DNA of 59,124 nucleotides from positions 1-59,124 of the IMG/VR virus record IMGVR_UViG_3300000228_000009; one strand, given 5' to 3'. Positions 18,826 to 43,679 of this stretch are shown here, piece after piece. A program made the translations under genes and the position numbers. The notes below the pieces were generated by a model that saw only the letters and a list, made by a program, of their open reading frames with translations, was not told the DNA's origin and made no database searches. This DNA comes from a virus (taxonomy: Duplodnaviria > Caudoviricetes). Position 1 is the first letter of the stretch, and each line of letters opens with the position of its first letter.

Positions 18826-19025
18826 TTTTCCATCTCCTTCAATGCTTCAGTAGCAATATCTTTATTAGTATACCCGCCTGGCACATCAATATTGCTTTGA
18901 ATGCGAAGTAGAGCAGCCTTCGCAATGTCCAACTTCTTCTTTGCCTCTTGACGTTCTTGTATAGCAGCTCTTGCATTAGCAGCTGCTCGTTCAATTACTG
19001 TTAGAGTTTTGTTAATCCAGTTCAT
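18822..19025 (-). CDS. hypothetical coiled-coil protein
   Basis: AAAGGAG RBS. Confidence 0.55.
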   Translation of the reverse strand: MNWINKTLTVIERAAANARAAIQERQEAKKKLDIAKAALLRIQSNIDVPGGYTNKDIATEALKEMEK

Positions 19026-19067
19026 AATGTACTCCTTTGCAATTATACTACCAGGGTTCTTTTGTTT

Positions 19068-19307
19068 TTATTTCCAATCTGCTGGGCGCATTGTCCAAGC
19101 GACCTCAGCGAAATCAGCGTGTAGTCCAAAGTACAGCTTATCTATAGGTATATCAAGAGATAAGGCAGCAGCCTTTTCAATATCTCCTGTAGAGGTATGC
19201 AATAATGATGCAGACCATATTGCTTCTACAACCTCATGTTGTTCTTCAAAGGGCTTTTCCCACGCTTCTTTTTCTCTTGGAACGATTTTGATTTTAATGA
19301 CGTCCAT
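19068..19307 (-). CDS. hypothetical protein
   Basis: GAGGTG RBS. Confidence 0.55.
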   Translation of the reverse strand: MDVIKIKIVPREKEAWEKPFEEQHEVVEAIWSASLLHTSTGDIEKAAALSLDIPIDKLYFGLHADFAEVAWTMRPADWK

Positions 19308-19386
19308 AAGTCACCTCGATTGGAGTTGGGTTAATTCTTCGTTTATGTAATGAATCTCAGCTTCTGTTTGACAAGCTGCCGTGAAT

Positions 19387-19575
19387 TCATCGTCCGCAAA
19401 GAATGGATAGGAAAGTATCTGTTTCTTTTTGTTTAGTAATTGTACTATCTTCTGGTTCATTATGGTTTTTTATTGTTCTGTTTATTATATCTACCGAAAT
19501 TAACATAGCTGCTTCTTTTCCTTTCAAGAAGGCTATGTCAATCAATTTCTTTACTTGTTCTTCTGTATAAACCAT
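19387..19575 (-). CDS. hypothetical protein
   Basis: AAGGA RBS. Confidence 0.5.
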   Translation of the reverse strand: MVYTEEQVKKLIDIAFLKGKEAAMLISVDIINRTIKNHNEPEDSTITKQKETDTFLSILCGR

Positions 19576-19715
19576 TTATAATCCTTGTAGTTTTTGTTAA
19601 TGAATGATCTTGCTTGTAAGATCGAGAAGGCTGCTCAGAAATAATATGCCTGGAATACCTATCATCAATAGAATCATTAAAAAATAATGCATGATGTCTC
19701 CGTAAATTGTATGTA

Positions 19716-19937
19716 CTATTCCTTGCAATACCAGCGATTGTCGGATTTATGGTAGTAATAAGTATATACAGAACTATCACATACTTTGTGAAAGGTTGTG
19801 TTATCAGGTGTTCTACATATGTCGAAAGCACCAGCAGATACCTGAGTAGTGATGAAATCATCGACACTGCTTTTTGATGATATGAACGATGCTGTCATCA
19901 CATCTCCCATATCTTTTGTTGTTTTATTACGTGCCAT
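19716..19937 (-). CDS. hypothetical protein
   Basis: structured leader with an AAAGGAG RBS. Confidence 0.6.
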   Translation of the reverse strand: MARNKTTKDMGDVMTASFISSKSSVDDFITTQVSAGAFDICRTPDNTTFHKVCDSSVYTYYYHKSDNRWYCKE

Positions 19938-20046
19938 ACTAAATCTCCTTTGGTGTTATACACCGTTGGTGTTTTATAGCTGACGAAATGCCAGCTACTT
20001 CAAAAAACCAGTACCACTGTGGAAGCTGGTACTAGTTTTTAGTGGC

Positions 20047-20349
20047 TTACCAGAGTTCTCTACCCTCCTTCATGGCCACGAAATATTTTTCGAAGTGGCC
20101 TAACCAGTCATCCATAGTTAATGCAAGGCTATACGTACCACCCCAGTACCCTGCATCATAGGTACCGAAGACCCCTACTCGGTTGTTACCGTTGATGCTT
20201 ACCCATAAATCTATTATTGGTCCTTCTTCAGAGTCGTCGTAATGACTCCATAAACCAGCACCTTCGTTAAGTTCTGGGTTGTATGTAAGCTCCATACCGT
20301 TAGCTTTGAAGGCGGCCACTATTTTCGGATCAAGCATAAACCTTTTCAT
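20047..20349 (-). CDS. hypothetical protein
   Basis: structured leader with an AAAGGAG RBS. Confidence 0.65.
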   Translation of the reverse strand: MKRFMLDPKIVAAFKANGMELTYNPELNEGAGLWSHYDDSEEGPIIDLWVSINGNNRVGVFGTYDAGYWGGTYSLALTMDDWLGHFEKYFVAMKEGRELW

Positions 20350-20696
20350 AATAAATCTCCTTTGCTCCGAAGAGCCTTGGGTTATATAATCAACGAAATG
20401 TTGATTCTTCGATAAGTAAGTACCACTAAAATTACGGAAGTAAATTGCTTTACCTGTCTAGTGGCTTTGAAAGCGGTCTATTCCAAGAACATCTAAAATA
20501 TGTACCGCGTCTTAAAGATTTGTACCATTTTCCCCCGATCCAAACTACCCAGAAAGCAACCAATAAGCAATCTACCGCAGGCATTTCTTACAGGGCTCCA
20601 GGGTAACCCAACAAGCAAACTACTACAGGTGTTGCCACGGAGATCGGTGTTGTTACTATCTACCAGTACCACTGTGGAAGCTGGTACTGTTTCGTT

Positions 20697-21206
20697 TTAC
20701 CTCCTTGCTATGAAGGGAATATCCTCGCTACGGGCCCACTCCTTAGCATCCTTAACAGCGTCTATCTCGGCGGCATGGCCGAAATAACTGGTGTTCTCAG
20801 GAGTGAAACAGTTACGTTCATCATCCCAAGTCAACAGCACTGCTTTCCAACCAGCTATTGGCTTGTAGGTTGTGACGAATGATGCCTTGGGGTCAGAACG
20901 GTAGCTGGTTTTCTTGATATGCCACAAGCTACCAAGTTCATCAGCTATATTCTCACGTAGGGACTTACCAAAGCAACAACCCATTCTTCCTCGTGTTTGT
21001 GTGAAGAACAGGGTAGAATGCTTACCATCTTTGCTTTGATAGCCAAAGATACCAAACTCTTGACAAGAAAGCACCAACTCCTGACCTTCAGCCAAGGCTC
21101 TTTTTGCATAGCGTCTGGCTTCCTCTTTGTCCATTGTTATGTACATATTGTCAGAAAGTACGTACATTCTCTTCAGCCATCCGTTAGGGATATTCATTGT
21201 ATTCAT
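20697..21206 (-). CDS. hypothetical protein
   Basis: structured leader with an AAAGGAG RBS. Confidence 0.65.
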   Translation of the reverse strand: MNTMNIPNGWLKRMYVLSDNMYITMDKEEARRYAKRALAEGQELVLSCQEFGIFGYQSKDGKHSTLFFTQTRGRMGCCFGKSLRENIADELGSLWHIKKTSYRSDPKASFVTTYKPIAGWKAVLLTWDDERNCFTPENTSYFGHAAEIDAVKDAKEWARSEDIPFIARR

Positions 21207-21212
21207 TGGAAA

Positions 21213-21670
21213 CTCCTTTGCTCCGAAGAGCCTTGGGTTTGCAGCTAAATTGCTGCCGGCGAGGATGAATTCCTCAAAAAACCGGTACCACTACCCGAAG
21301 GCAGTGGTACAATATTAGGCAAGTTTTTTCCAACAGAGCTGAGCTCCGTTGTAGCACACATGACAGGATTCAATGGTAGTGTAGTATACACAACCATTAT
21401 GTGATAGCTTTAGCAGGTAAGTGCCTTTGTCGGTATTCAGCCAGCACTTATGTCCCTTAAATGTGATTGTGATTTTACCATCTAAGGACACCATACCCAT
21501 ATACCGATCGGTACGAGATGAAAGGGGGCTGCCATCGACAGGAATTAACTTGATATAGTTGTACATGGTGTTCTCCTTTGCTCCGAAGAGCTTTGGGTTT
21601 GCAGCTAAATTGCTGCGGGCGAGGATGAATTCCTCAAAAAACCAGTACCACTACCCGAAGGCAGTGGTAC
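21213..21670. repeat. ~100-bp near-identical direct repeats (cassette leader), period 360 bp
   Basis: 21213-21310 vs 21573-21670: CTCCTTTGCTCCGAAGAGC...GCAGCTAAATTGCTGC...GAGGATGAATTCCTCAAAAAACC.GTACCACTACCCGAAGGCAGTGGTAC. Confidence 0.9.
21315..21566 (-). CDS. hypothetical protein
   Basis: lies between two cassette repeats; AAAGGAG RBS. Confidence 0.65.
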   Translation of the reverse strand: MYNYIKLIPVDGSPLSSRTDRYMGMVSLDGKITITFKGHKCWLNTDKGTYLLKLSHNGCVYYTTIESCHVCYNGAQLCWKKLA

Positions 21671-21678
21671 CGGTGGTG

Positions 21679-21933
21679 CTACCAAGACAGAATAGCAGTT
21701 CTTTTCATGATCTCAACTTGAACATGAAAGGCCACACCATTTAAAAGCACACCTCCACTATAAAAGGTTGAGTACGAAGGATAGGACGGAACCCCGTCCT
21801 GCTTTAGTACGTATTTACCACGTCTTGTTTTTAAAACAAGAGCATCATTATACACATTTATATCAACTACAATAGTTTTGTCCTCGGATTTGAAAATGCC
21901 ACATTTTACAGAGGTGAGAATGATTTCAGACAT
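21679..21933 (-). CDS. hypothetical protein
   Basis: AAAGGAG RBS; weak similarity to the 21315 protein (LNTDKGTYLLK vs LKTRRGKYVLK). Confidence 0.65.
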   Translation of the reverse strand: MSEIILTSVKCGIFKSEDKTIVVDINVYNDALVLKTRRGKYVLKQDGVPSYPSYSTFYSGGVLLNGVAFHVQVEIMKRTAILSW

Positions 21934-22270
21934 GGTGTTCTCCTTTGCTCCGAAGAGCTTTGGTGGGGGGGGGTGGTTGCCACATAAAAGTGACGTTGAT
22001 TACAACTTCCAATGAGGAAGAAGCAATGTGAGGACACATTCCTCAAAAGAGCAGTACCACTATAAGCGGTTAGAAAGGAAAACTGCCCCCTATAAAAATA
22101 GAAATTTTCTTATACATGGTGTACCACTATAGGGTACCCATTATTATAAATTTTTTCTAAAAAAACAATATGACCACCACTATAGGGCGCCACATGATAT
22201 GTACATAAAGATGTTAATGTAGTAATATATAATAGTATTAAGAAGTAAATATGTAAAAGCCTATGGTTGA

Positions 22271-22330
22271 AAGTACCAACAAGTACCAACAAGTACCAAC
22301 AAGTACCAACAAGTACCAACAAGTACCAAC
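22271..22330. repeat. tandem repeat, 6 x 10 bp (AAGTACCAAC)
   Basis: six exact copies. Confidence 0.95.
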
Positions 22331-22482
22331 ATCTTTAAGTACTAAAATTAATATGCTTATTGTAGTTGAAAAGAAAAATACGGTGAAACAAAAATAATAG
22401 AATTACACATATTAGTTACACCATATTTGTACTTACACTATAGTACTACTATAGTACTACTATCAGCAGAGAAGTTATTTTT

Positions 22483-22579
22483 TGAAACCGCAGTAGTTTA
22501 AATTTTGATACAATAGGTGTTTCATAACTACTGAAACCGCAGTAGTTTAAATTGTGGTACTAAAAATGTTTCATAACTA
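22483..22579. repeat. imperfect 49-bp-period tandem duplication
   Basis: TGAAACCGCAGTAGTTTAAATT...TGTTTCATAACTA at 22483 and 22532. Confidence 0.85.
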
Positions 22580-22934
22580 AATAGCATAATAGTACAATAA
22601 TCATAGTAGTGACAAATAGTGACATCTCAAAACATATTAATATAAATAATATAGTATTAGCATAGTAGTACTACTATAACTGTACTGCTCTATGCCTCTA
22701 CTTGACTCTATACGCTTCTTTTTGTACTAATAGTATATCTACTGTGGTAGTGGTGAGTAAATTTAATGGTGGTACTACTATGCCATTTTATAGCGCGGGG
22801 AATAAAATTAGGGTGGTGGTCGTATTAGTGTCCCAAGTGTGACTCGTTAATAAGTTTATGTAGGAATAGTTAATAAACTAACTAATATAAAAATGTAGGC
22901 AAATAGCTTTTAATCTTAAATATTAGGAGAAATT

Positions 22935-23381
22935 ATGAAAAAATTTATAGTAGGTTTAGCAATATTAGCTGCACTATCTACCCAAGGATGTGCTAACAGT
23001 AACTTCATGACTGATACCAACATAGACCCAGTAGAAGCGGCTACTATTCAACTTTCAGTAGGAGCTGCTATGGCAGCATATCCTAAAACAGTAGTACCAG
23101 CATTTCAAGTATCGTCTGCGTTGCTTGCAGTAAAAAACTCAGACACTAATCTTGTAGCATTGAGTTTCCTTGATGATGAATTAGCTAAAGAAACTGCTAA
23201 GCTTAATCTAGATCCTTTGACACTACAATCATTTAATGACTTAATTTTACTTGTGAGAGTTAGTATTAATAATAAACTATCTGATAGTAATATACCTGAA
23301 AATGAAAAATTAGTAATGGTTTGGAAAGTAGTGGAAATAGTAAATGCTACTGCTAAAGCTAGAATAGATCTAGTAAAATAA
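22935..23381 (+). CDS. putative lipoprotein
   Basis: MKK + hydrophobic core + TQG|C lipobox-like site; AGGAG RBS. Confidence 0.65.
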   Translation: MKKFIVGLAILAALSTQGCANSNFMTDTNIDPVEAATIQLSVGAAMAAYPKTVVPAFQVSSALLAVKNSDTNLVALSFLDDELAKETAKLNLDPLTLQSFNDLILLVRVSINNKLSDSNIPENEKLVMVWKVVEIVNATAKARIDLVK

Positions 23382-23384
23382 ATG

Positions 23385-23413
23385 TTGACTTATTTTTAAA
23401 AATATATTATATT
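23385..23413 (+). promoter_or_regulatory. sigma70-type promoter
   Basis: TTGACT-17 nt-TATATT. Confidence 0.55.
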
Positions 23414-23439
23414 TACTTTAAATACTTATCTTAATAATT

Positions 23440-23800
23440 AAATCCTCAGTTTTTTACAAAAGCCTTTGAGGTGCATTAGGAATTATTACCTAATCCAGGT
23501 ATGGCGTTGCCCGGCCAGTTGAATTCAAATAATAGGGAAACCCTGATAAAGTACTTGCAATAAGTACTTAGCCGTCCTAGATGCTTATGCATCCTGAATA
23601 TGAAGAATAAGAAATAGTGATAAGATGTTTCTTTACGTGGTAAAGGTAGACCAGGGCACGTACTTCTTCTAAAAAACGAAACAAACGACCGACGTCAAGT
23701 CAGTTAAAAGTTAGTTATTCAGTCCCTTGTGCACGATAGTTGTTTCTTTTTTATTGTGCATGGGGGGCTAAAGTACTCACTTCACTCTCTCGGTCAAATC
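23440..23800 (+). ncRNA. candidate large structured non-coding RNA, family unidentified
   Basis: ORF-free, relatively GC-rich, with many hairpins and long-range complementarities downstream of a promoter (see findings). Confidence 0.5.
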
Positions 23801-23923
23801 ATGTTGGTTGTGCTGTTGTAGTTTATTACTACTTGTTAATAACTGCTGTATTGATCTGCCGTGATGTATATTAGTACTATAATTAATAATTACTAATAAG
23901 TTAAATTTAAGAACTACAATAAT

Positions 23924-24295
23924 ATGTGTGGTTCAATAAGGAGAATTTCTATGGATGAAAGTAGCGCTAAAATAATGTACGACTTAACAAAACTAACCAA
24001 TAAACCTAGACAAATAACTTCTGATTTTATAGAAACAATAACTTTAGTTATGTTTAGAGAATTTATTAATCACCTGCCTAATAAAGAAGAATACTTAGAT
24101 CTAGTTCTAAACACATGGGAAGAACAGATTCTTGGTCAGAAAGAAGCAGAACTAGACTTACTTACTGCAGAACATAATACTATGTTTGAGTTAGTTGCAG
24201 GATCAGTTATTGCTAATTCAGAAAACATTAAAGAATTTACCAAAGAAGTAGATGCGATTAAAAAAATATATAGAAGTAGTCTTATAAGTAATTAA
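23924..24295 (+). CDS. hypothetical protein
   Basis: likely start MDESS with an AAGGAG RBS. Confidence 0.6.
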   Translation: MCGSIRRISMDESSAKIMYDLTKLTNKPRQITSDFIETITLVMFREFINHLPNKEEYLDLVLNTWEEQILGQKEAELDLLTAEHNTMFELVAGSVIANSENIKEFTKEVDAIKKIYRSSLISN

Positions 24296-24382
24296 ATTTT
24301 TTATTGTGTCTTCAAATAAAGTAACCTATGTAAAGTATACTATTTATTAATAGCTATTTAACCTTTTTGGAGATACTATGAA

Positions 24383-24697
24383 ATGGAAAATTTATCAGTA
24401 AAGATAGAGAAGTTTTCTATCTATATTATGATTGTATATATGTCCACTATGACAGGTTTGTATTTTCATATGGACTCCCGCATCAACGCCCTGCAAACTA
24501 TGCAAGATAGAACTTTCGAAAAATATTCTTTAAAAGAACAAAGAACTGAAGAAGATATACTAGCAGTAAAACTTCAAGTTTCTGAATTATCAAAGGATGT
24601 TAAAAAAGTAGAAAATAACATCTTAGATCATCTAACAAATTTATCTAATATTATAGTTGCCAACAACTCAAATAATAAAGAACAACCAAAAAAATAA
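24383..24697 (+). CDS. membrane-anchored coiled-coil protein
   Basis: one TM segment plus a heptad-like region; GGAG RBS. Confidence 0.55.
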   Translation: MENLSVKIEKFSIYIMIVYMSTMTGLYFHMDSRINALQTMQDRTFEKYSLKEQRTEEDILAVKLQVSELSKDVKKVENNILDHLTNLSNIIVANNSNNKEQPKK

Positions 24698-24699
24698 AA

Positions 24700-25146
24700 A
24701 TGGGTCAAGTAGATATAGAAGTAATCAAGATTATTATTAATAATAATTTTTCTATGATTAATCTCACATGGAGTTCTGGACTAGCTTGGTGGTTATCGTC
24801 TTTTGTTTTTGTATTGGCTTTATTTGGAAAACTTTACCCTAGTAAAAAAATATTTATTGACAATGGTTTATTTGTACCAGTAGGTATGCTTGTTTCTTTT
24901 ATTTTAGTATCTTTAATTACTTTTGGTGTTGTGGTAATACATGATCTTTCTATAGTTGAGGTTTCTACTTATAAACTTTTTATAAATATATGTTCTAATT
25001 TTAATGCCCCAAATGCCGGATATATTTTTGATTTAGTGAGGAAGTTGTATGTTATTGTTACGTCAAGTTTAATAGTTTTTTTAATCGCTTGGTTATACTT
25101 ATGGTTTTTTGAAAGCAAACCAAGCTCATTTATTACTAAACCCTAG
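24700..25146 (+). CDS. integral membrane protein (3 TM)
   Basis: three hydrophobic segments. Confidence 0.55.
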   Translation: MGQVDIEVIKIIINNNFSMINLTWSSGLAWWLSSFVFVLALFGKLYPSKKIFIDNGLFVPVGMLVSFILVSLITFGVVVIHDLSIVEVSTYKLFINICSNFNAPNAGYIFDLVRKLYVIVTSSLIVFLIAWLYLWFFESKPSSFITKP

Positions 25147-25173
25147 TACTAATCATATAGTACTAGGGTTTTT
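25138..25173 (+). terminator. intrinsic terminator
   Basis: AAACCCTAGTACTA-ATCATA-TAGTACTAGGGTTT followed by Ts. Confidence 0.7.
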
Positions 25174-25187
25174 AATTTGGAGGATAA

Positions 25188-26465
25188 ATGTCAAAAATAC
25201 TCGTAGACACTAATTTACTGTTGGACGATTCAAATATTCTATTTAAATTACACAAAGAATATGATGAAATAATCTTATCTGCAGTAGTATTAAAAGAATT
25301 AGATAAGCATAAAGTTAATCCTGACTTATCTTTTTCTGCAAGGGCTGCCATTAACTCTATTAAAGAGTTTCAAAAGAAATATCCCGATGTCATTACATTT
25401 GTTGTTAATGATCAGGATATTTCAAGTAATGATGATTTGATAATTGCCGCCGCAAAAAGTACTGGGGCAGAAATAGCTACTAAAGATATATCTATGAGTA
25501 TTATATCTGAAAGTAAAGGAGTAAAAGCTAGATTATATGGTAATATAGCAAATGGTGTTTTTGATCCATACACTTATATTAAAGAGACGGAACTTCCTAC
25601 ATTTTTTTCTTACTTACAAAAATACACCAATGATTTGTATGATGAAATACTTACATGGTTAGAATTAAATAAACAAGTTACTAGAAATAGTTGGTGTTTC
25701 ATATTTATTCAAGATGCAGCTAGTAATGACACAGCTATATACGCAAATAACCCTATTAATTTTTCTTTAGATAGAATAGACAATAATCCTAATTATAGAA
25801 CTATAGGAGAAGATTCATTTAAATTAAAAGCTAAAGACTCCTATCAAGTGTGTGCATTTTATGCTTTAATAAATGCTCCCAATGTTTTACTAACGGGTAA
25901 ATGGGGTTCAGGTAAAAGTTTAATTAGTTCAGCATATGCTATTAGTCACAATAGTAAGAAAACTTTTATTAGTAGACCTCCAATAGGAATTGATCCAAGA
26001 TACAACATAGGGTTTTTACCTGGAGGTACTGAGGATAAGTTAAATTCTTGGGCTATGGGTTTTTTAAGTTCACTCTATTTTATTTTTGGAAATACAAAAG
26101 GTCAAGCTAAGGAAGGAAAGTCTTTTGATTTCGTAAAAGCTGAACTTTTTAAAAAATATTTTGAGTTGCTTGATATAAACAGTATTCAAGGTTTAAGCTT
26201 AATGGACGATTATTTGCTTTTAGATGAGGTGCAGCTTTGTACTATTGATCTAGTTTCAGCCTGTTTAAGTAGGGCAACAGAAGAATCTAAGATAATAATG
26301 ACAGGTGACCTAGTACAAAGTTATAATATAAAACCTTCTAACAGTGGTTTACTAAAACTATTAAGAGCATTACCACATAAGTCTATGGCTTATGTGAATT
26401 TGAAATATGCTTATAGGAGTGATTTACTTGAACTAGCTGAGAAATTACAAGATAAGACATTCTAA
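25188..26465 (+). CDS. phoH: PhoH-family ATPase with N-terminal PIN domain
   Basis: LVDTNLLL PIN start, GKWGSGKS Walker A, IGFLPGGTEDK, DEVQ, TGDLVQ. Confidence 0.9.
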   Translation: MSKILVDTNLLLDDSNILFKLHKEYDEIILSAVVLKELDKHKVNPDLSFSARAAINSIKEFQKKYPDVITFVVNDQDISSNDDLIIAAAKSTGAEIATKDISMSIISESKGVKARLYGNIANGVFDPYTYIKETELPTFFSYLQKYTNDLYDEILTWLELNKQVTRNSWCFIFIQDAASNDTAIYANNPINFSLDRIDNNPNYRTIGEDSFKLKAKDSYQVCAFYALINAPNVLLTGKWGSGKSLISSAYAISHNSKKTFISRPPIGIDPRYNIGFLPGGTEDKLNSWAMGFLSSLYFIFGNTKGQAKEGKSFDFVKAELFKKYFELLDINSIQGLSLMDDYLLLDEVQLCTIDLVSACLSRATEESKIIMTGDLVQSYNIKPSNSGLLKLLRALPHKSMAYVNLKYAYRSDLLELAEKLQDKTF

Positions 26466-26609
26466 TTTAGAATATAAACTAACTTCTATTACTATAGTTA
26501 GTACAACTAAATTTTTTAATTACAGAAAAACCAGTAGATGTTGGTACAGGTATCATCGCAGCAGCTAGTCAGACAGGTAATGCTACTAATTTAGCAGGGA
26601 GTTTATATA

Positions 26610-26795
26610 ATGGTATGGATAAATAACAAACATTACAATGCTAAGTCTTATCCGAAAGAAGCTCGCGGAGGAGCAATGTGTAATTGTAAAAAATGTAGAA
26701 AATATACTGAAGAGCCGTTAGTTTGTCCTGTATGTGGTTGTAAAGTTTTATCAGGTGCAACAAGTTGTTGTTCTTGTGGTTGGTATAAAAAATGA
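26610..26795 (+). CDS. Cys-rich zinc-ribbon protein
   Basis: CNCKKC, CPVCG, CCSCGW. Confidence 0.5.
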   Translation: MVWINNKHYNAKSYPKEARGGAMCNCKKCRKYTEEPLVCPVCGCKVLSGATSCCSCGWYKK

Positions 26796-27421
26796 TTAGA
26801 TACTTTAGTTTTTGTGTTTATATACTTGTAGCAGTTGTTTGTCTTTTTTCCACTCCAGCAAGAGCTACAGTTTATAAACAAATTAATTTTGAATGGGAAT
26901 ATGATACAAGTGTAGAAGGGCTAGCTGGGTACATCTTATATCAAGGTGGAAAGCATCTTCATACAATTAAAGACCCTAAAGCTCTATCAGTTGATTTAAA
27001 TGTAGGACTAGAACCAGGAAGTGTTGTTGCATTTACTATGAAGGCTTTTGATGTTGAAGGTAACGAGAGTGCTTTATCTGCTCCGTACAATTTAGTTGTA
27101 CCAGTAGCATTTGAAAATAGTAATTTTTTACCTATACCTATGATATCTAATAATATTAATAATACAACTGTTGATTTTACTGCATTAGGTTCAACAGATT
27201 TTGATGGTAGTATTACTAGTTATTCTTGGAATTTCGGTGACGGTACATACTCAACGTACCCATCAGTTACTCATATTTTTCCAGTGTCTGGTACTTATAT
27301 AGTTATATTAACTGTTACTGACAATGATGGTGGTATAGTTTCTTGTAATAAAGAGATAATTGTTAGCAATACAGAATATTTAATAAAACGCCCTATTAAT
27401 ATAAAGTTAATTTCAAACTAA
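26792..27421 (+). CDS. secreted Fn3-like + PKD domain protein
   Basis: signal peptide; AFDVEGNESALS Fn3-like end; YSWNFGDG...GTYIVILTVTDNDG PKD motif. Confidence 0.8.
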   Translation: MIRYFSFCVYILVAVVCLFSTPARATVYKQINFEWEYDTSVEGLAGYILYQGGKHLHTIKDPKALSVDLNVGLEPGSVVAFTMKAFDVEGNESALSAPYNLVVPVAFENSNFLPIPMISNNINNTTVDFTALGSTDFDGSITSYSWNFGDGTYSTYPSVTHIFPVSGTYIVILTVTDNDGGIVSCNKEIIVSNTEYLIKRPINIKLISN

Positions 27422-34910: not shown

Positions 34911-35891
34911 ATGAGTAAGTCAAACAAGTTGTTTTTTACTGGTGTTATTAAACCAGCATTTAATATTAAAAATTACACACTTTTAATTAGTGCGAAAGAT
35001 TATAAAGAACAGTACCAAAGATTTTATTACATTTGTGATTCAGGTGTAATTCATGAGACATGTTGGAATAATGTAAGTAGAGGTACTTTTTGTAGATGTA
35101 AAACAAAATTAAAAGCTTACAAAGAACTAAAAACATATATCAAAAGTAAGTGTGGTAGGATTCTCAAACCGTGGTTTGAGTTTATTGATGTTGATACGCC
35201 TGTAAGATGCAAGTGTTCAAATAATCATATATTTAGTCTGTCATTGTCTGACGCAAGAACAGGTGTGTGGTGTAATAAATGTTTTCGTGATGAAAAAGCT
35301 GTTAGTAGGATTATTAAAAATAACATAGCTTTGTATGATACTTTACATACGAAGCTACAGGAATGTGGTGAGAAAACTTTTGCAATACATGAAAATAATT
35401 TAAAGTTACTAGGTGTTTCTTGTAAGAACTGTAATGTTATTTTTCACCCAGGCCGGAGAGCTTCTTATGAACGAATAAGGTCTGCTTTGTACAATGGCAC
35501 TGGAAATAATTATTTCTTTTGTTCAAGTGCTTGTAAATATAATAGTGTTTACTACAACCAATGCATAATGGACTTTTCTAAATTTGAAAAAAGTGTTTTA
35601 AAATTTATTAAAACTTTTTATAAGAGTAAAATTAAAAATCATGATAGGTCTGTAATAGTTAATCCTACAACAGATAAAGCACTTGAGTTAGATTTTTATT
35701 TTCCGCATATTAATAAAGCTATCGAATGTAATGGAAGTTATTGGCATGCATCAGAAGTAGTAAAAGAAAGAGATAAAATAAAATTAAAGCAATGTGAGCA
35801 AGCAGATATAAAATTGCTTGTAATTGATGAATACTTATGGTATAATGATACATTAAATCAACAAGTAGTTATTAAAAATTTTTTACAATAA
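34911..35891 (+). CDS. free-standing homing-type endonuclease (Zn modules + Vsr/PD-(D/E)xK-like domain)
   Basis: LELDFYFPHINKAIECNGSYWH nuclease motif; Cys/His repeats. Confidence 0.7.
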   Translation: MSKSNKLFFTGVIKPAFNIKNYTLLISAKDYKEQYQRFYYICDSGVIHETCWNNVSRGTFCRCKTKLKAYKELKTYIKSKCGRILKPWFEFIDVDTPVRCKCSNNHIFSLSLSDARTGVWCNKCFRDEKAVSRIIKNNIALYDTLHTKLQECGEKTFAIHENNLKLLGVSCKNCNVIFHPGRRASYERIRSALYNGTGNNYFFCSSACKYNSVYYNQCIMDFSKFEKSVLKFIKTFYKSKIKNHDRSVIVNPTTDKALELDFYFPHINKAIECNGSYWHASEVVKERDKIKLKQCEQADIKLLVIDEYLWYNDTLNQQVVIKNFLQ

Positions 35892-37784: not shown

Positions 37785-40700
37785 ATGTCTAAACTAACCA
37801 AAAACATGGATATTGTTTTACAACAAGGTCCAGAAATGATCGAGTTTTATAGAAACAATCCTTGTATTGCTGCATATGAATTACTTGGTGTAGATCTGGC
37901 TCCTGTACAACGTATAGTATTTGAGGCTATGTGGTTTAAGCCGTATGTACTGGCAATATGTTCTAGAGGTATGGGAAAAACCTTTTTGTCTGGGGTACTT
38001 GCATCATTACTAACTTTGTTATATCCTGGATATAGGGTGGGCCTGATAGCCCCTAGTTTCCGCCAGTGTTTATTAGTATCAGATACTAACGCTACTTTTT
38101 GGACATCCGATGGCTTAAGTGTAGCAGAGAATTTTTATAATGCTATTGAGTGTGGTACTACACATGTTCAGTCCTTGTACAATAATAACCTAATAGTAAA
38201 TAAGTGGAAAAACCCCAAAAGACCTTGTATAAAGATAGATACAGAACGTGGTTTTTCTGTTGGTGGTACATTGGATCATAGGTTACTAACAATAGACACA
38301 AACATGGATTTGGTTTACACTAATTTATCTGATATTACAAAAGACACTTATATAGCTATAAAAAAGGGTTTTAATTTATATGGTGATAGTATTAAACTTC
38401 CAGATGTTTTTATTGAAGAATCTTACAGGAACAAATGCTGTACGCTCCCTAAAACTATGACAAAAGATTTTGCTTATTGGCTAGGATTACTAATAGGTGA
38501 CGGTAGTATAGAATATAATGAGACTGCTGGAAAATATAGAGTATGTTTCTATAGCTCAGATTATGAGTTAACTGAAAGTTTTAAAAAAATAGGCACTAAA
38601 TTATTTGGTATTAATCCTTGGAAAGATGTTGATAGAAATGGTAATATTTCTTCTTGTTTTAATAACAAGAAAATGCTCAGGTTTTTACTAAGTTGTGGTT
38701 TAACCACAAATAACTCTCCACTAAAATATATACCTCATGTAATATGTAAAGCACCTAAAAGTTATATAGTAGAGTTTGTGGCAGGGTTGTTAGATACAGA
38801 CGGTAACGTTTCTCAATTTACAGACAATAATTACAAATGGATATCAATAGGTTTAACAACTTCATCAAAAAGGTTGGCAGAGGAGTATAAAGCAGTTTTA
38901 CTTAATATTGGCGTTATGTCATCTACTAGTATTGATGATAGGCTTGATAAAAATTATATAGTAGATCATATAGCAACTAAGAAGTATCTATCATATAATA
39001 TAACAGTTTCTGGTTTTGATGATATATGTACTTTTCACAAACATATTAAATTTAAGTTAAAAAGAAAACAAGAACTTATTGATGGGTACATAGAAAATAA
39101 GTCTTGTAAAATAAGTAATACTAATAAACTTCCTTATTCCTTACCATATTATAAAGAATTATTGATACATCTAAATACTACACATAGTAAGCTACTTACA
39201 GAAAATGAACTTATTTTAGCTCGTATGGGGATACGTTGTTGCCACAAAAATAAATCACAAAGTATCACATGTAAAAAACTACTTCAAGTGTTATCAATAT
39301 ATGATAAGTATAACTTACATCATACAGCTATTAGTAAAATAGAAAACTTATTAAACTTAAATTTATGTTTTGTTAAACCAAAAGAAATTACTAGTTTATT
39401 CGAAGAAACTATAGATATTGAAGTAGTTAACGAATCTTGTTATTTTAGTAGTGGTTTTATTAGTCATAACTCTAAAATGATATTTAATGAGGTTGAGAAA
39501 TTATATTCTAAATCACCTATATTACGCGAAGCAACAGAGAAGAGACCTATTCGTGGATCTGACACTTGTTACTTAAAATATAAATCTTCCGCAGGAACAA
39601 ACGGTTCCTTTATTGAAGCCCTCCCATTAGGAGCAGATGGGGCCAAAATTCGTGGTTCTCGTTTTTATTGTTTGTTGGTGGATGAGTTCGCACAAGTACC
39701 ATCAAAAATAATAGAAACAGTTCTAGCACCAATGAGTATTACTAAATTAGATCCTATGAATAAAGTACGGGAGTTGGAACGTAGAAAGTCTTTGATAGCG
39801 GCAGGTTTAGCATCAGGGGATGATTTTGAGGAAGATTCTGTGAATAAAATGATCGGGACTTCATCTGGTTACTACAAGTTTAATCATATGTATAAACGTA
39901 TGAAGGAGTATTGGAATCAGATAGATGCTGGATCACAGGATCATGCAGTTTTCCAGATACCTTATACAGCACTACCTGAAGGTTTCCTTGATCCTAAGAA
40001 TATAGAAAATGCTGAAAGGGTTATGTCAAGTCATGAGTTTGCTATGGAGTATTTGGGAGCCATGGTGAGTGACTCAGAAGGTTTTTTTAAAGCGTCTGTT
40101 TTAGAAAAATGTACAACTTCCGATCATTCTTTAGAATTATCAGGAGAAAAAGAAGTTAGTTATATTATTGGTATAGATCCTAACCAAGGTGGTAAAGCTA
40201 AATGTGGTGTTGTAATAATTAGGCTCGGAAGACCAAATAAGATAGTAAGAGTTTTAGCTCTTGATGGTAAAACTACACAAGACATAACAACGTCTCTTCA
40301 GGATTTATGTAATTCTTACAATGTTATAAGGGTGTTCATGGATAGGGGCGGCGGCGGAAAGGCAGTATCTGATTTGCTGGCTGAAGGATATAATAATTCG
40401 GAACCTATATTAAATATAAACGACAAAGACAACTTAAAGATTAAAGGTAGACGTATACTAGATCTCATAGCTTTTAGTACTTCATGGATCGCCGACGCAA
40501 ATTTCGCAGCATTATCTTTATTTGAAGACACTAATCTTATGTTTCCACAGGTACCTTTATATAATGTTGATGATAAAGTACAAGATGTTATTTATAATAA
40601 TTATGACCTTATATATGAATTAAAAAGACAGTGTTTAAACATTGTTGTTACACAAACTTCTGGTGGGGCTTTACATTTTGATACACCTAAAAAAGGACAA

Positions 40701-40910
40701 AACAAGGACTTGTATTCTGCTTTAATTTTAGCTTGTTATGGTGTTAAAGCTTTAGAACATGAGTCTACAGATGCTGTTTCTTCTAACTCTTTTCATTCTA
40801 CTGGTGGTTTAGTTAGAGGACATGATGGTGGTAATTGGTCAAACACACCATCAAGTATTGTTTTATCATCAGCAGCTTTATCAATGGCTGTTTTAAATAA
40901 GAAAAAATAA
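37785..40910 (+). CDS. terL: terminase large subunit containing an intein (extein ~573 aa)
   Basis: Walker A SRGMGKT, Walker B LLVDEF, nuclease IGIDP and KDLYSAL. Confidence 0.92.
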   Translation: MSKLTKNMDIVLQQGPEMIEFYRNNPCIAAYELLGVDLAPVQRIVFEAMWFKPYVLAICSRGMGKTFLSGVLASLLTLLYPGYRVGLIAPSFRQCLLVSDTNATFWTSDGLSVAENFYNAIECGTTHVQSLYNNNLIVNKWKNPKRPCIKIDTERGFSVGGTLDHRLLTIDTNMDLVYTNLSDITKDTYIAIKKGFNLYGDSIKLPDVFIEESYRNKCCTLPKTMTKDFAYWLGLLIGDGSIEYNETAGKYRVCFYSSDYELTESFKKIGTKLFGINPWKDVDRNGNISSCFNNKKMLRFLLSCGLTTNNSPLKYIPHVICKAPKSYIVEFVAGLLDTDGNVSQFTDNNYKWISIGLTTSSKRLAEEYKAVLLNIGVMSSTSIDDRLDKNYIVDHIATKKYLSYNITVSGFDDICTFHKHIKFKLKRKQELIDGYIENKSCKISNTNKLPYSLPYYKELLIHLNTTHSKLLTENELILARMGIRCCHKNKSQSITCKKLLQVLSIYDKYNLHHTAISKIENLLNLNLCFVKPKEITSLFEETIDIEVVNESCYFSSGFISHNSKMIFNEVEKLYSKSPILREATEKRPIRGSDTCYLKYKSSAGTNGSFIEALPLGADGAKIRGSRFYCLLVDEFAQVPSKIIETVLAPMSITKLDPMNKVRELERRKSLIAAGLASGDDFEEDSVNKMIGTSSGYYKFNHMYKRMKEYWNQIDAGSQDHAVFQIPYTALPEGFLDPKNIENAERVMSSHEFAMEYLGAMVSDSEGFFKASVLEKCTTSDHSLELSGEKEVSYIIGIDPNQGGKAKCGVVIIRLGRPNKIVRVLALDGKTTQDITTSLQDLCNSYNVIRVFMDRGGGGKAVSDLLAEGYNNSEPILNINDKDNLKIKGRRILDLIAFSTSWIADANFAALSLFEDTNLMFPQVPLYNVDDKVQDVIYNNYDLIYELKRQCLNIVVTQTSGGALHFDTPKKGQNKDLYSALILACYGVKALEHESTDAVSSNSFHSTGGLVRGHDGGNWSNTPSSIVLSSAALSMAVLNKKK
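38067..39470 (+). mobile_element. intein with LAGLIDADG homing endonuclease (468 aa)
   Basis: FRQ|CLLV N-junction, ISHN|S C-junction, DHR block B, WLGLLIGDG and VAGLLDTDG motifs. Confidence 0.92.
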
Positions 40911-40951: not shown

Positions 40952-42730
40952 TTGGTAAAAACTATGAATGAAAATACAGCTAATAAAATAACTGCAGATT
41001 TACAAGCACGTTATCCTGATGTAGGTATAAAGTCAGTATCAATAGATGAAGCCTCTGGTCAAACTACATTTTTAGTCGAACCAACTAAAAAGTCTTTGGC
41101 TTTCTTAGATAATCCTCTTATGCCACATACATTTAAAGCAAAGGCGTCTACACTTTCGAGGGACTCGTTGTCAAGATCCTATCTTGATCTATCCATGAAG
41201 AAAGATGTATATGATGAGGATCCTAAAGTTCTATATGACAAGGTAATGCGTTACTATTACACAGAACCAATAGTCGGGTCTGTTATTAATGTTTTATCGT
41301 CATTGGCTAGTAAAGGCTTTGAAAATGATATAGATGATGTTGACATAAAGAATTTTTTCGATACTTGGGTATTCGATGTAAATTTTGAGGAAGTTATAGA
41401 TTGGATATTTCTTGAATTATTTAAAACATCACAGGTTACTACATACAAATATATAGCTAACTACGAACCAAGAATATCAACAATACAGCCAGCTGGAAGT
41501 AGCAAATCTAAAAAAGTAAAGTCGGTTGGTAAATTAGAAAACGCTGCAAAAAAGAAAATTTGGTCTAAAGGGCATTTACCTGTAGGTTACACAGTTTTAA
41601 ACCCATCATTAGTTAATATTACAGGTAACTTACTTTTTAATAATGTATCAGTTTCTCTTTCACCTCCTAAAGAATTAGGAGAAGTATTAAAAAAGAATAC
41701 TTCAGATCTTACAGAAGAAGAAAAAGCACTTATTAAAGCGCTACCAAGCGATTTAAAAAAAGCGGCTGAAAGTGGCGGAGATTATCAACTTGATTCTAGA
41801 TTAGTAGGTAATATAACATACAAGAAGCAACCTTATGAAAGGTATGCAAGACCTAGAACAGCTAGAGTTTTCGAAAGTATTGAATATAAGAAAGCATTAC
41901 GTAACGCTGACTTAAGCACTTTAGATGGTATTTCTAATTATATTTTAAAAATTACTGTAGGTAATGACGAGTTCCCTGTAACATCTCAAGAAGAGTTAGA
42001 GGCCGTGGCTAAACTATTTGATACACCAAGTAAAAGTTTTGATGTTGTGTGGAATCACACACTTAAAATTGAAAAAATAGTTAGTCCAGAGATCGATAAA
42101 ATTTTAGGCCAGGCAAAATACTCTCAAGTTAATGAAGACATTACAGGAGGTCTTTCTTTTACAAGAGCATTACTAGATGCAACAGATGTCACAGCTGGAT
42201 CAGAATGGGCAATTGGCGCGGTAAAAGAAGATATTGATTACGCTAGAAAACAAGTAACACGTTGGATATATAACGAGTACAGACAGATAGCTGAAGCTGT
42301 GGGTTTTGATAGATTCCCTAGAGTTCGCTGGGATGAAAACATTCTTAGGAACGATATACTTTATAAAAATTCTATTGCTTCTATGGTGGATCGAAGAATG
42401 CTATCATATCAAACTGCACTTGAAACTTTAGGTTTTGATTACACAAATGAATTAGGTAATATGCAAAATGAGTTACCATTAATAATTGATGGTACGTTTG
42501 GTCTAAGAGGTAGCCCTTTTCAACAAGCTACATCATTACAAAAAACACAGAACGCTCCAGTTGGGACACCTTCTAACGGTAGGCCTACAGGAACTACAAA
42601 TACAAAAACACCAGAAACAGATCCTAGTAAAATAGAAGCCAGTAATTCTTTAAGTAGTGTTTTTTCTGCTATGTCTAAAGAGGATAGAGAATTACTTATA
42701 AAAGAAATTTCAAGTATTGATACGGATTAG
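40952..42730 (+). CDS. portal protein
   Basis: 592 aa immediately after terL; synteny with head genes. Confidence 0.7.
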   Translation: MVKTMNENTANKITADLQARYPDVGIKSVSIDEASGQTTFLVEPTKKSLAFLDNPLMPHTFKAKASTLSRDSLSRSYLDLSMKKDVYDEDPKVLYDKVMRYYYTEPIVGSVINVLSSLASKGFENDIDDVDIKNFFDTWVFDVNFEEVIDWIFLELFKTSQVTTYKYIANYEPRISTIQPAGSSKSKKVKSVGKLENAAKKKIWSKGHLPVGYTVLNPSLVNITGNLLFNNVSVSLSPPKELGEVLKKNTSDLTEEEKALIKALPSDLKKAAESGGDYQLDSRLVGNITYKKQPYERYARPRTARVFESIEYKKALRNADLSTLDGISNYILKITVGNDEFPVTSQEELEAVAKLFDTPSKSFDVVWNHTLKIEKIVSPEIDKILGQAKYSQVNEDITGGLSFTRALLDATDVTAGSEWAIGAVKEDIDYARKQVTRWIYNEYRQIAEAVGFDRFPRVRWDENILRNDILYKNSIASMVDRRMLSYQTALETLGFDYTNELGNMQNELPLIIDGTFGLRGSPFQQATSLQKTQNAPVGTPSNGRPTGTTNTKTPETDPSKIEASNSLSSVFSAMSKEDRELLIKEISSIDTD

Positions 42731-42731
42731 T

Positions 42732-43679
42732 ATGTCCAAAAAATTAACTTATGCAGAAGTTAAAAGTATTTTTAATGCTAAGGGTTTGACACTTACATCA
42801 GAACATTATATAAATAATAAAATTAAATTACATTACATATGTAAAAAATGTGGTTATAGTAATGAAACTGATGTTATTACAGTTAAAAATAGTAAAGGTT
42901 GTCCAAGGTGTAATAATACTGTTTATAAATATAAAATTGATGATGTAATACTAGCTCTTTCCAAGGAAAGGTATAAATTAATTAGTACTGTTTATGATAA
43001 TAGTTGCCAAAGATTACAGGTTGAATGTAACAGGGGTCATATCATTACACTGGCCTTTAGGGATTGGGTACAAGGTTGTAGGTGCCTTAAATGTTATTTA
43101 GAAGATGTACAAAAAATAAATATAAGTAAATTGGATTTACCGTTTTATGACACATACGCCAGTAAGCTTGTAGTATATCAAGAAGTACATGAAATTATTC
43201 GTGTTATAAATAACGTTGAAGTATCATTATTAGGTGTTAATTGTTTAACATGTGGAAAAATTTTTATACCAAGCACATCATCAGTTTTTCGCAGATTGAA
43301 TTGTATAAATGGAGTAACAGGCGGCGAAAGTAATTTATATTGTTCGGAGGATTGTAAAGACAACTGTAGTGTTTTTGGGAAACATAAATATCCAAAAGGC
43401 ATCAAACAATATAGAAATATCAGACCAGATCAAAAACAATGGGCGGCCATAGTTAAAGAACGTGATAACTACACCTGCCAAAAATGTGGCTCTACAGAAG
43501 GAACTATAGTAGCACACCATATAGAACCAGTTATAGAAAATCCTATAGAATCCGCAGATATTGATAACGGTATAGCTCTTTGTCAAAAGTGTCATAATGA
43601 ATTACATAGTTTACCTGGGTGTAAAAGTAAAGATCTTAGATGTAATAAAAATACTAAGGAGGTGTTAAATGAAGTATAA
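42732..43679 (+). CDS. HNH endonuclease with N-terminal zinc-binding repeats
   Basis: RDNYTCQKCG...AHHI...NGIALCQKCHNELH; ATG at 42732. Confidence 0.85.
   Translation: MSKKLTYAEVKSIFNAKGLTLTSEHYINNKIKLHYICKKCGYSNETDVITVKNSKGCPRCNNTVYKYKIDDVILALSKERYKLISTVYDNSCQRLQVECNRGHIITLAFRDWVQGCRCLKCYLEDVQKINISKLDLPFYDTYASKLVVYQEVHEIIRVINNVEVSLLGVNCLTCGKIFIPSTSSVFRRLNCINGVTGGESNLYCSEDCKDNCSVFGKHKYPKGIKQYRNIRPDQKQWAAIVKERDNYTCQKCGSTEGTIVAHHIEPVIENPIESADIDNGIALCQKCHNELHSLPGCKSKDLRCNKNTKEVLNEV

Follow-up and report, generated by a model that had tools for sequence, protein, structure and literature searches.

The window considered here is the linear IMG/VR record IMGVR_UViG_3300000228_000009, 59,124 bases of viral DNA (Duplodnaviria; Caudoviricetes) with a G+C content of 33% and an estimated completeness of 22% (CheckV). 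On its plus strand, an open reading frame (ORF) of 148 amino acids (aa) and one of 123 aa are separated by a gap of 542 bases (23382-23923), in which the initial annotation had inferred a complex folded RNA of unknown class at 23440-23800. The sequences quoted in that annotation are indeed those of the window, and the stretch is free of ORFs, as it stated: no ORF in the gap is longer than 44 aa, and alternative codes (TAG as Q; table 4) were tried and open none. The comparisons described below indicate that the element is very probably a real structured RNA, homologous to the EGFOA family (Rfam RF02955). Its central part of about 135 nucleotides (nt; 23541-23673) is a divergent member of this family, that is, a longer version of a catalogued RNA and not a new class. 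What is new is the presence of conserved 5' (about 120 nt) and 3' (about 130 nt) domains, the length of the RNA, its promoter and its place in a clade of phages of about 260 kb.

A permissive Rfam scan of 23300-24000 aligned 23562-23673 on the plus strand, where all RNA features discussed here are located, to the full EGFOA model (positions 1-108) with 36.9 bits. This corresponds to E-values of 4.8e-5 over the 701 nt, 5.5e-4 over 8 kb and 9.7e-7 per record, and EGFOA was the sole match at E <=1 in 19000-27000. Nowhere in the window is the gathering score of an Rfam family reached. At E <=10, nothing besides EGFOA appeared except for unspecific matches of long hairpins to microRNA and long non-coding RNA models, and the Rfam models of group I and group II introns, RNase P, known ribozymes and riboswitches gave no match; ARAGORN found no transfer RNA (tRNA) or transfer-messenger RNA gene in the whole window. 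In agreement with this, the initial annotation recognised no tRNA, transfer-messenger RNA, RNase P or group I core. The two invariant blocks of EGFOA, CCGUNCUAG and GUAAAGNUAGACC, are both present, at 23572-80 and 23640-52, and do not vary in the 14 family members that score above the cut-off. The 5' CCCAGA strand of EGFOA is complementary to CUGGG in the large loop, a pseudoknot inferred in the present analysis, and here the window has the compensatory variant CCCUG/CAGGG. The program cmscan aligned the 5' block of the model (acuuuCCcAG) with a hairpin's 3' arm (AAGUACUUAG) and not with the true CCCUGA at 23541-46.

Homologs were collected by a pattern scan for the two invariant blocks, with CCGUNCUAG and GUAAAGNUAGACC lying 35-65 nt apart. 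Matches were obtained at 25 and then 9 loci in viral contigs and at 33 loci in metagenome contigs, and among prokaryotes 185,579 species, represented by one genome each, gave a single locus. Twenty of the first 25 viral matches were set aside for lack of the CCGUNCUAG block, and the prokaryote match (L065) as well as loci L040 and L056 were discarded since by sequence they appear to be coding DNA; blastn found no match in GenBank phages. The resulting 44 matches represent 35 distinct sequences, which after removal of L040 and L056 leave 33 family members, the window included; L002 may be a divergent relative. Six homologs, L063, L011 (identical to L059), L023, L041, L015 and L013, can be aligned with the window over the full length of the RNA. 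This alignment of seven sequences from phage and metagenome contigs begins at the -35 box and ends with a C/U-rich tail, with identities from 84.2% down to 53.5%, and the sequences outside it are unrelated. The EGFOA cut-off is passed by four of the six homologs (L041, 44.5 bits; L011, 44.2; L013 and L015, 42.1 each), and 10 of 14 more distant loci that were scanned score 57-69 bits. Because the core matches the whole model and the RNA can be aligned from end to end with members scoring above the cut-off, we consider the core homologous to EGFOA and hence a divergent member.

The plus strand of 23440-23800 folds with -98.5 kcal/mol (z-score -3.59, none of 100 shuffled sequences being as good), compared to a z-score of -1.69 for the minus strand, where 9 of 100 shuffles did as well. 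RNAalifold predicted 58 pairs from the seven-sequence alignment, of which 28 have compensatory changes. The curated structure comprises 84 pairs in 14 helices, two of these being pseudoknots. In the alignment, 85.6% of its cells form a standard pair (shuffled mean 76.8%), 39 pairs are changed on both sides (shuffled mean 19) and the covariation score is 0.358 (shuffled mean 0.214), values that none of 500 shuffles reached, although with only seven related sequences such shuffle controls overstate the significance. Controls in which the 3' partners were slid by 1-3 columns scored 0.10-0.15, and this slid control and the counts per helix weigh more than the shuffle control. When the segments between anchors were folded separately, a hairpin was obtained at H1, at H2 and at 23549-69 in all seven sequences and at H3 in five, despite differing sequences. 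When 14 diverse EGFOA cores were aligned with MAFFT, RNAalifold recovered only helix Pd.

All four helices of the EGFOA model (a hairpin, an outer stem and two inner hairpins) are kept with covariation in the group of the window. Pa (GAUGC/GCAUC, 23580-23593), the first hairpin of the model, has compensatory changes in three of its five pairs, and Pb (GAAGAA/UUCUUC, 23602-23669), the outer stem that encloses Pc and Pd, in five of six. In Pc (AAGAAAUA/UGUUUCUU with loop GUGAUAAGA, 23609-23633) seven of the eight pairs are compensatory. Pd (ACGUG/CACGU, 23635-23661), which carries a 17-nt loop (GUAAAGGUAGACCAGGG), is paired in 100% of the cells, with compensatory changes in two of five pairs among the seven sequences and in four of five among the 14. 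An additional hairpin (AAGUACUU/AAGUACUU, 23549-23569) is inserted between CCCUGA and CCGUCCUAG; it was predicted in all seven independent folds and five of its eight pairs are compensatory. Thus, the hairpins proposed earlier as AAGTACTT/AAGTACTT, GATGC/GCATC and AAGAAATA/TGTTTCTT are borne out by covariation.

The comparison shows a compact double pseudoknot, in which the 17-nt loop of Pd pairs back to two single strands upstream, CCCUG and GU-N-CUA, with the four helices arranged around an invariant core. The first pseudoknot, PK1 (CCCUG at 23541-45 with CAGGG at 23652-56 in the Pd loop), is paired in 95.4% of the cells among the 14 members above the cut-off, and three of its five pairs are compensatory. 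Among all 33 members, complementarity is 5/5 in 17, 4/5 in 10, 3/5 in two and 2/5 in one, and three are without a C[AT]GA motif in reach, one of them having just 29 nt of upstream sequence. Six fully complementary combinations occur: CCCAG/CUGGG, CUCAG/CUGAG, CCCUG/CAGGG, AUCAG/CUGAU, ACCAG/CUGGU and UCCAG/CUGGA. In the second pseudoknot, PK2, GU (23574-75) and CUA (23577-79) pair with UAGAC (23647-51) in the same loop, with C23576 bulged out. The five pairs are the same in all 14 and all seven sequences and therefore uninformative for covariation. A sixth pair that occurs in other members, between G and the base preceding UAGAC, is G-C in ten of the 14 members, G-U in one and unpaired in three, and the sole variable base of CCGUNCUAG is the proposed bulge. 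Taken together, PK1, PK2 and Pd (16 pairs) are 97.3% paired in the 14 members and score 0.459 as compared to 0.143 after shuffling, which was reached in none of 500 shuffles.

A local hairpin, UAGGG-AAA-CCCUG (23533-23545), can be formed in four of the seven sequences. Since its 3' arm CCCUG is also the 5' strand of PK1, the two structures are alternatives. This hairpin was part of the initial annotation (TAGGG-AAA-CCCTG) and can stand only in part: three homologs (L041, L015 and L013) lack the GGG and it competes with the better supported PK1. By eye, a similar upstream copy of the loop sequence can be seen in other subgroups.

The 5' domain may be closed by a helix of AUACUU (23422-27) and AGGUAU (23497-502), of which six columns are paired in at least six of the seven sequences; it is nearly invariant and conflicts with a 3-base-pair GGU/GCC helix (23498-500/23571-73) predicted by RNAalifold. 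Within the domain, H1 (CCUCA/UGAGG, 23444-48/23467-71) has two compensatory pairs out of five and a conserved UAAAGCC in its loop, and covaries to CCCUC/GAGGG, CUUGUU/AACAAG and CCUAC/GUAGG. H2 (23472-23497) consists of AUUAGG/CCUAAU (23475-80/23489-94) and two closing pairs. The earlier proposal of ATTAGG/CCTAAT holds, as a hairpin of differing sequence (CUAGC/GCUAG, CUUAG/CUAAG, CUUAA/UUAAG) occupies this place in all seven independent folds. H3 (GGC/GCC with loop GUUGCCCG, 23503-23516) is paired in 100% of the cells and has two compensatory pairs out of three (AGC/GCU, GCC/GGC). Between H3 and the CCCUG strand, an optional palindromic hairpin is present in three of the seven sequences.

Beyond the core, a long-range helix of CUGAAUA (23594-600) and UAUUCAG (23716-22) is paired in 79.6% of the cells, with compensatory changes in two of seven pairs (CAGAA/UUCUG and others), in agreement with the enclosing helix CTGAATA/TATTCAG proposed before; its 3' strand falls past the end of the Rfam model. 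This strand is preceded by a conserved linker of 46 nt (UAAAAAACGAAACAAACGACCGACGUCAAG..., 23670-23715), in which AACGA..CGACCGACG is conserved in the close group and GAACGAUACUG is, by eye, common to L013 and another subgroup. A candidate pairing of the H3 loop with the linker, CGUU(G) with (C)GACG, is compatible with the alignment and nearly invariant. The 3' domain contains a hairpin of 16 base pairs (23723-23767) that is predicted independently in all seven sequences and has eight compensatory pairs, so that the long 3' stem of the initial annotation also stands. Neither the 5' (23405-23560) nor the 3' domain (23660-23870) matched an Rfam family, the scans giving only noise at E 0.05 to 9.

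Of the ten helices proposed at the outset, six hold and one is an alternative to PK1, whereas the other three found no support. The enclosing helix ATGGC/GCCGT is excluded because H3 covaries, two columns of the crossing pairing CGTTGCCCGG/CCAGGGCACG never pair in any of the seven sequences, and the crossing pairing GACCGA/TCGGTC exists in the window only. Jointly with TAGGG/CCCTG, these are 67.4% paired and score 0.061, a value reached by 191 of 500 shuffles. Helices that had been missed are those at 23444-48/67-71, 23503-05/14-16, 23602-07/64-69 and 23635-39/57-61, as well as PK1 and PK2. The more general claim of a complex folded RNA with pseudoknots is nevertheless upheld, be it that the real pseudoknots use other partners: the collection of homologs and covariation analysis that had been suggested as a check yielded six homologs and the 39 compensatory pairs, and natural variants spare the helices. 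The latter, eight substitutions and one deletion within 23380-23860, were found in DNA contigs from four metagenome runs. Loops are affected by 23482 A>G (H2), by 23586 and 23588 (Pa) and by a 1-nt deletion at 23747 (3' hairpin), and the -10 box by 23412 T>C. Pairs are kept by 23562 A>G in the inserted hairpin, which turns A-U into G-U, and by 23615 T>C in Pc, which turns U-G into C-G. The changes 23609 A>T and 23634 T>A, located on either side of the Pc stem at its base, co-occur in one contig. None of the nine breaks a helix.

A sigma70-type promoter, with -35 box TTGACT (23385-90), a 17-nt spacer and -10 box TATATT (23408-13), is located at 23385-23413, directly in front of the RNA. A promoter scan alone is not above chance (six sites, 7.8 expected). 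Nevertheless, the position downstream of a sigma70 promoter given in the initial annotation is supported by the homologs, since the TTGAC of the -35 box is aligned in all seven sequences. No conservation is found upstream of the -35 box, and in five of the seven, reading the alignment by eye, TG directly precedes the -10 box. In several subgroups, TTGACA-17-TATAAT promoters precede the core by 174-378 nt. Judged from the promoter of the window, the 5' end of the proposed RNA of about 380 nt would be at 23420, and its 3' end would lie near 23800. The DNA homology to phage records G001 and G002 as detected by BLAST spans exactly 23419-23799/23804 of the window. The limits of this span correspond to a start about 7 nt past the -10 box and to the tail's end. 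The match with record G004 runs from 23363 to 23661, and in G003 no DNA-level match over the RNA was found by BLAST.

The RNA ends in a C/U-rich, G-poor single-stranded tail (AAAGUACUCACUUCACUCUCUC, 23770-23795) that is conserved in the close group; by eye, L037 and two other subgroups have similar tails, resembling CUCACU..CUC, after a 3' hairpin. From its composition, the tail could load Rho. Pairing of the tail with the GAGG strand of H1, by which the ends could be closed or strands exchanged, was rejected since 96-1000 of 1000 shuffled tails reach it. A role as anti-Shine-Dalgarno sequence is no more than an idea; CCUCC-like sequences occur in some members only and are absent from the tail of the window (CACUCUCUC). 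Further downstream, a possible terminal hairpin (GUAGU-UUAUU-ACUAC, 23818-23832) may be present: an equivalent is predicted in four of seven sequences, the z-scores of the region are -0.2 to -3.7, and no T-run follows it. In the subgroup of L030, a strong terminator-like hairpin with a run of 6-7 T residues (-8.8 to -14.4 kcal/mol) is found about 120 nt past the core in L030, L047, L054 and L058, where it separates the linker from the conserved 3' hairpin and tail; the sister loci L038, L049 and L062 do not have it.

EGFOA occurs once per record in all five related phage records, and none of 14 control genomes matches. From the sizes and completeness estimates of these five records (59 kb, 22%; 228 kb, 86%; 55 kb, 21%; 66 kb, 25%; 38.5 kb, 15%), each genome would measure about 260 kb. 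The close group has a conserved gene order, with the 148-aa ORF, the RNA, ORFs of 123, 104 and 148 aa and a 425-aa PIN-PhoH protein, all on one strand. The 148-aa protein upstream and the 123-, 104- and 148-aa proteins downstream have no Pfam domain above the curated cut-off and belong to no PHROG family. For the 104-aa protein there are weak sub-threshold Pfam matches only, and the Atlas gave only hypothetical-protein clusters, among them one set, for the 123-aa protein, with a sub-threshold share of Zn_ribbon_recom. The PIN-PhoH fusion (25188-26465) is syntenic with the RNA in the four close-group loci, including the window, that have sufficient downstream flank. This protein, predicted to be an RNA-directed nuclease/ATPase, may be considered as a possible partner of the RNA. 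The neighbours in other subgroups are entirely different (a DnaE-type polymerase, an amidase, an RHH regulator with capsid and RepA_N genes, integrases), and no protein family neighbours the RNA across subgroups, i.e. no protein partner travels with it. Transfer RNA genes were noticed within about 1 kb of EGFOA in two of 20 loci scanned (L042:1247-1319 and L061:203-274).

Some further features of the window deserve mention. The ORF-poor appearance of 21206-22935 is due to intergenic cassettes of about 100 nt, of which four to five dispersed copies are present (20347-20428, 21203-21310, 21563-21670, 21930-22062), two being 97% alike. They are situated between small minus-strand ORFs and have, on the minus strand, what looks like a GC-rich hairpin with a T-run (terminator-like), two small hairpins and AAAGGAG before the next ATG; pieces of about 40 nt recur many times in the related records G001-G003. 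A tandem repeat of about seven copies of a 10-nt unit (AAGTACCAAC) at 22261-22340 overlaps a 70-aa minus-strand ORF (22110-22322). Two adjacent 48-nt direct repeats, 88% alike (22483-22579), lie in the divergent intergenic region between minus- and plus-strand gene blocks and may be operator or promoter elements. The terminase large subunit (1041 aa, 37785-40910) is interrupted by an intein carrying a LAGLIDADG homing endonuclease domain, and free-standing HNH or homing endonuclease genes are found near the terminase at 34911-35891, 42717-43679 and 49641-51074.

With respect to function, the following mechanism can be envisaged. The region 23420-23800 would be a phage gene for a non-coding RNA under its own host-type (sigma70) promoter, which would be transcribed early by the host RNA polymerase and yield a separate transcript. 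The RNA would act in trans as a structural RNA by means of its invariant core, either by associating with itself into small oligomers made of RNA only, by binding a conserved component of the host, or in both ways, and the variable peripheral domains could adapt it to each phage lineage. A separate transcription unit is suggested by the promoter that is present in all seven sequences and by a second promoter (score at least 10/12) that precedes the next gene in six of the seven close homologs, 276-653 nt past the CCGU block and in five of the six cases with a TTGAC -35 box. Furthermore, at two distant loci, L061 (a DDE transposase) and L037 (an NrdG-like protein), the first real gene to follow has the opposite orientation, so that the RNA is not always a leader. 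EGFOA RNAs can assemble in vitro: a recent preprint describes a trimer, a hexamer and a strand-exchanged dimer of two members, seen by cryo-electron microscopy (bioRxiv 10.64898/2026.07.01.735769). A full-text literature search for EGFOA/RF02955 found this work only. The motif is reportedly due to Weinberg and co-workers in 2017. It is not mentioned in the main text of Weinberg et al. 2017. As it stands, the trans-acting, self-assembling mechanism is a tentative proposal, somewhat more open to doubt than to belief, whereas for the explanation as a whole, in which it is blended with the structured EGFOA homolog, the balance tips slightly to the positive side.

Several observations weigh against this explanation, in addition to the small number of related sequences in the alignment. 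Concerning identity, the window stays 0.8 bit short of the EGFOA gathering score of 37.7, probably due to the 21-nt hairpin that is inserted at 23549-69; homolog L023 (37.0 bits) is below the cut-off as well, and L063 gives no match at the gathering threshold. Concerning mechanism, self-assembly was observed in vitro only, with other members and constructs of less than 200 nt (bioRxiv 10.64898/2026.07.01.735769), and nothing ties it to a biological role. The phage is uncultured and known from soil, biofilm or cave habitats; all 13 runs that contain the sequence are recorded as DNA and give no indication of transcription. Moreover, no intrinsic terminator follows the RNA, the window has no promoter with a score of at least 10/12 between the RNA and the next gene, and this gene is situated about 125 nt past the tail in the same orientation. 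The RNA of the window could therefore be a long leader, and a co-directional downstream gene is found in most family members, at 290-1100 nt.

Such a cis-acting leader, a structured 5' part of a messenger RNA that controls downstream genes by antitermination, as HK022 put or EAR, or as a switch, would have as its targets the 123-, 104- and 148-aa proteins, the PIN-PhoH protein and then about 35 kb of same-strand genes. The start of the RNA right past the promoter fits with this, as does the fact that all ORFs of at least 90 aa in 22935-58913 are on the plus strand, except two overlapped ones. Alternative structures are also at hand, since CCCUG can pair with either UAGGG or the Pd loop, and four members of one subgroup have a strong terminator-like hairpin inside the 3' domain. 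However, a leader would always form the 5' untranslated region of a co-directional gene, with no promoter between. The window itself is compatible with that arrangement, but in the family the second promoters intervene in six of seven close homologs, the next real genes at L061 and L037 are convergent, and the downstream genes differ completely by subgroup (DnaE-type polymerase; RHH regulator with capsid gene; PhoH). Rfam types EGFOA, a model of 108 positions, as 'Gene; sRNA' (small RNA), and no Rfam match indicates likeness to put or EAR. We consider a leader unlikely, without being far-fetched. It is far less probable that the RNA is a ribozyme with the invariant double pseudoknot as its catalytic core, for self-cleavage or another reaction. 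The absolutely conserved junction and loop nucleotides (CCGUNCUAG, GUAAAGNUAGACC) and the phage DNA context would fit a ribozyme, and double-pseudoknot topologies are common among small ribozymes. On the other hand, no ribozyme family of Rfam matches even at E <=10, repeated or rolling-circle context and exon-like flanks are lacking, and what is accessible of the preprint reports intact oligomers and mentions no cleavage (bioRxiv 10.64898/2026.07.01.735769).

The original notion of a large RNA of wholly unknown class draws on the absence of an Rfam gathering score in the window and on the 5' and 3' domains that match nothing. For the core it is refuted by the whole-model match (36.9 bits) and by the full-length alignment with RNAs scoring 42.1-44.5 bits, which makes it highly improbable. 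The initial annotation had added that a confident Rfam hit would remove the novelty; with the Rfam search carried out, this is in substance the case for the core, whereas the 5' and 3' extensions remain new. That the element is not an RNA at all, and that its conservation reflects a gene for a small protein or a site acting as DNA (e.g. an origin, packaging site or operator array), is hardly credible. Short ORFs of 30-44 aa do exist on both strands, including a minus-strand ORF of 38-39 aa in three of seven homologs, but no ORF is conserved in all seven, and lengths and starts vary. Substitutions in stems are compensatory and insertions and deletions fall in loops, folding is strand-asymmetric, and there is no repeat array inside the element.

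The homology to EGFOA is of wider interest since this is an orphan Rfam family, for which until now only a 108-nt model was available, and the natural EGFOA transcript is probably about 3.5 times longer. The locus and its homologs provide natural boundaries, a conserved host-type promoter and compensatory variants for work on structure and function. In L060 (4757-5129), EGFOA-assoc-1 (RF02970; 250 positions, 252 bits) and EGFOA share a strand, the former ending 12 nt before the latter starts, which implies that there the large 5' domain and the core have already been catalogued, as two families. Probably they are one RNA of about 370 nt, and this suggests that the Rfam entries EGFOA and EGFOA-assoc-1 are parts of one larger RNA. 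A bolder generalisation, which is speculative and rather doubtful, would be that the 108-nt motif is only the invariant core of phage RNAs of about 350-420 nt with interchangeable 5' domains that are specific to a lineage, EGFOA-assoc-1 being one, and a shared module of a long 3' hairpin and a C/U-rich tail. In a clade of phages of about 260 kb, this RNA would be an early transcript of the host polymerase and would form RNA-only oligomers serving host takeover, with the CCCUG toggle as an assembly or folding switch.

It is useful to compare the RNA with known systems. HK022 put RNA and EAR lie just past a promoter, at the head of a long co-directional gene run. The RNA of the window is placed likewise, but it is much larger and has no similarity to them, and most homologs have a separate downstream promoter. 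GOLLD and ROOL (Weinberg 2017) and manA are structured RNAs, large or associated with phages, that assemble into RNA-only multimers. The RNA of the window has in common with them that it is phage-borne and highly structured, and that the EGFOA family homo-oligomerises in vitro (bioRxiv 10.64898/2026.07.01.735769). Sequence or model similarity is absent, and the EGFOA oligomers described are open trimers or dimers and not cages (bioRxiv 10.64898/2026.07.01.735769). The tRNA genes near EGFOA at L042 and L061 recall the tRNA association of GOLLD and ROOL, whereas the window has no tRNA. EGFOA-assoc-1 takes in L060 the position that the 5' domain has in the RNA of the window, pointing to a single composite RNA with about the same overall size. 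However, the window's 5' domain of about 120 nt (H1, H2, H3) does not match this family (none at E <=10 in 23300-24000 or 23405-23560); the two domains differ and are lineage-specific. The closest relative is EGFOA itself, with which the RNA shares the CCGUNCUAG and GUAAAGNUAGACC blocks, the helices Pa, Pb, Pc and Pd and their order, a 5' CCCWGA strand with complementarity to the Pd loop, an origin from phages or metagenomes and a location in a gene-poor spacer. It differs by the 21-nt hairpin between CCCUGA and CCGUCCUAG, by a G instead of a C before UAGAC, and by a length about 3.5 times that of the 108-position model, with the long-range helix and the 3' domain lying outside the model.

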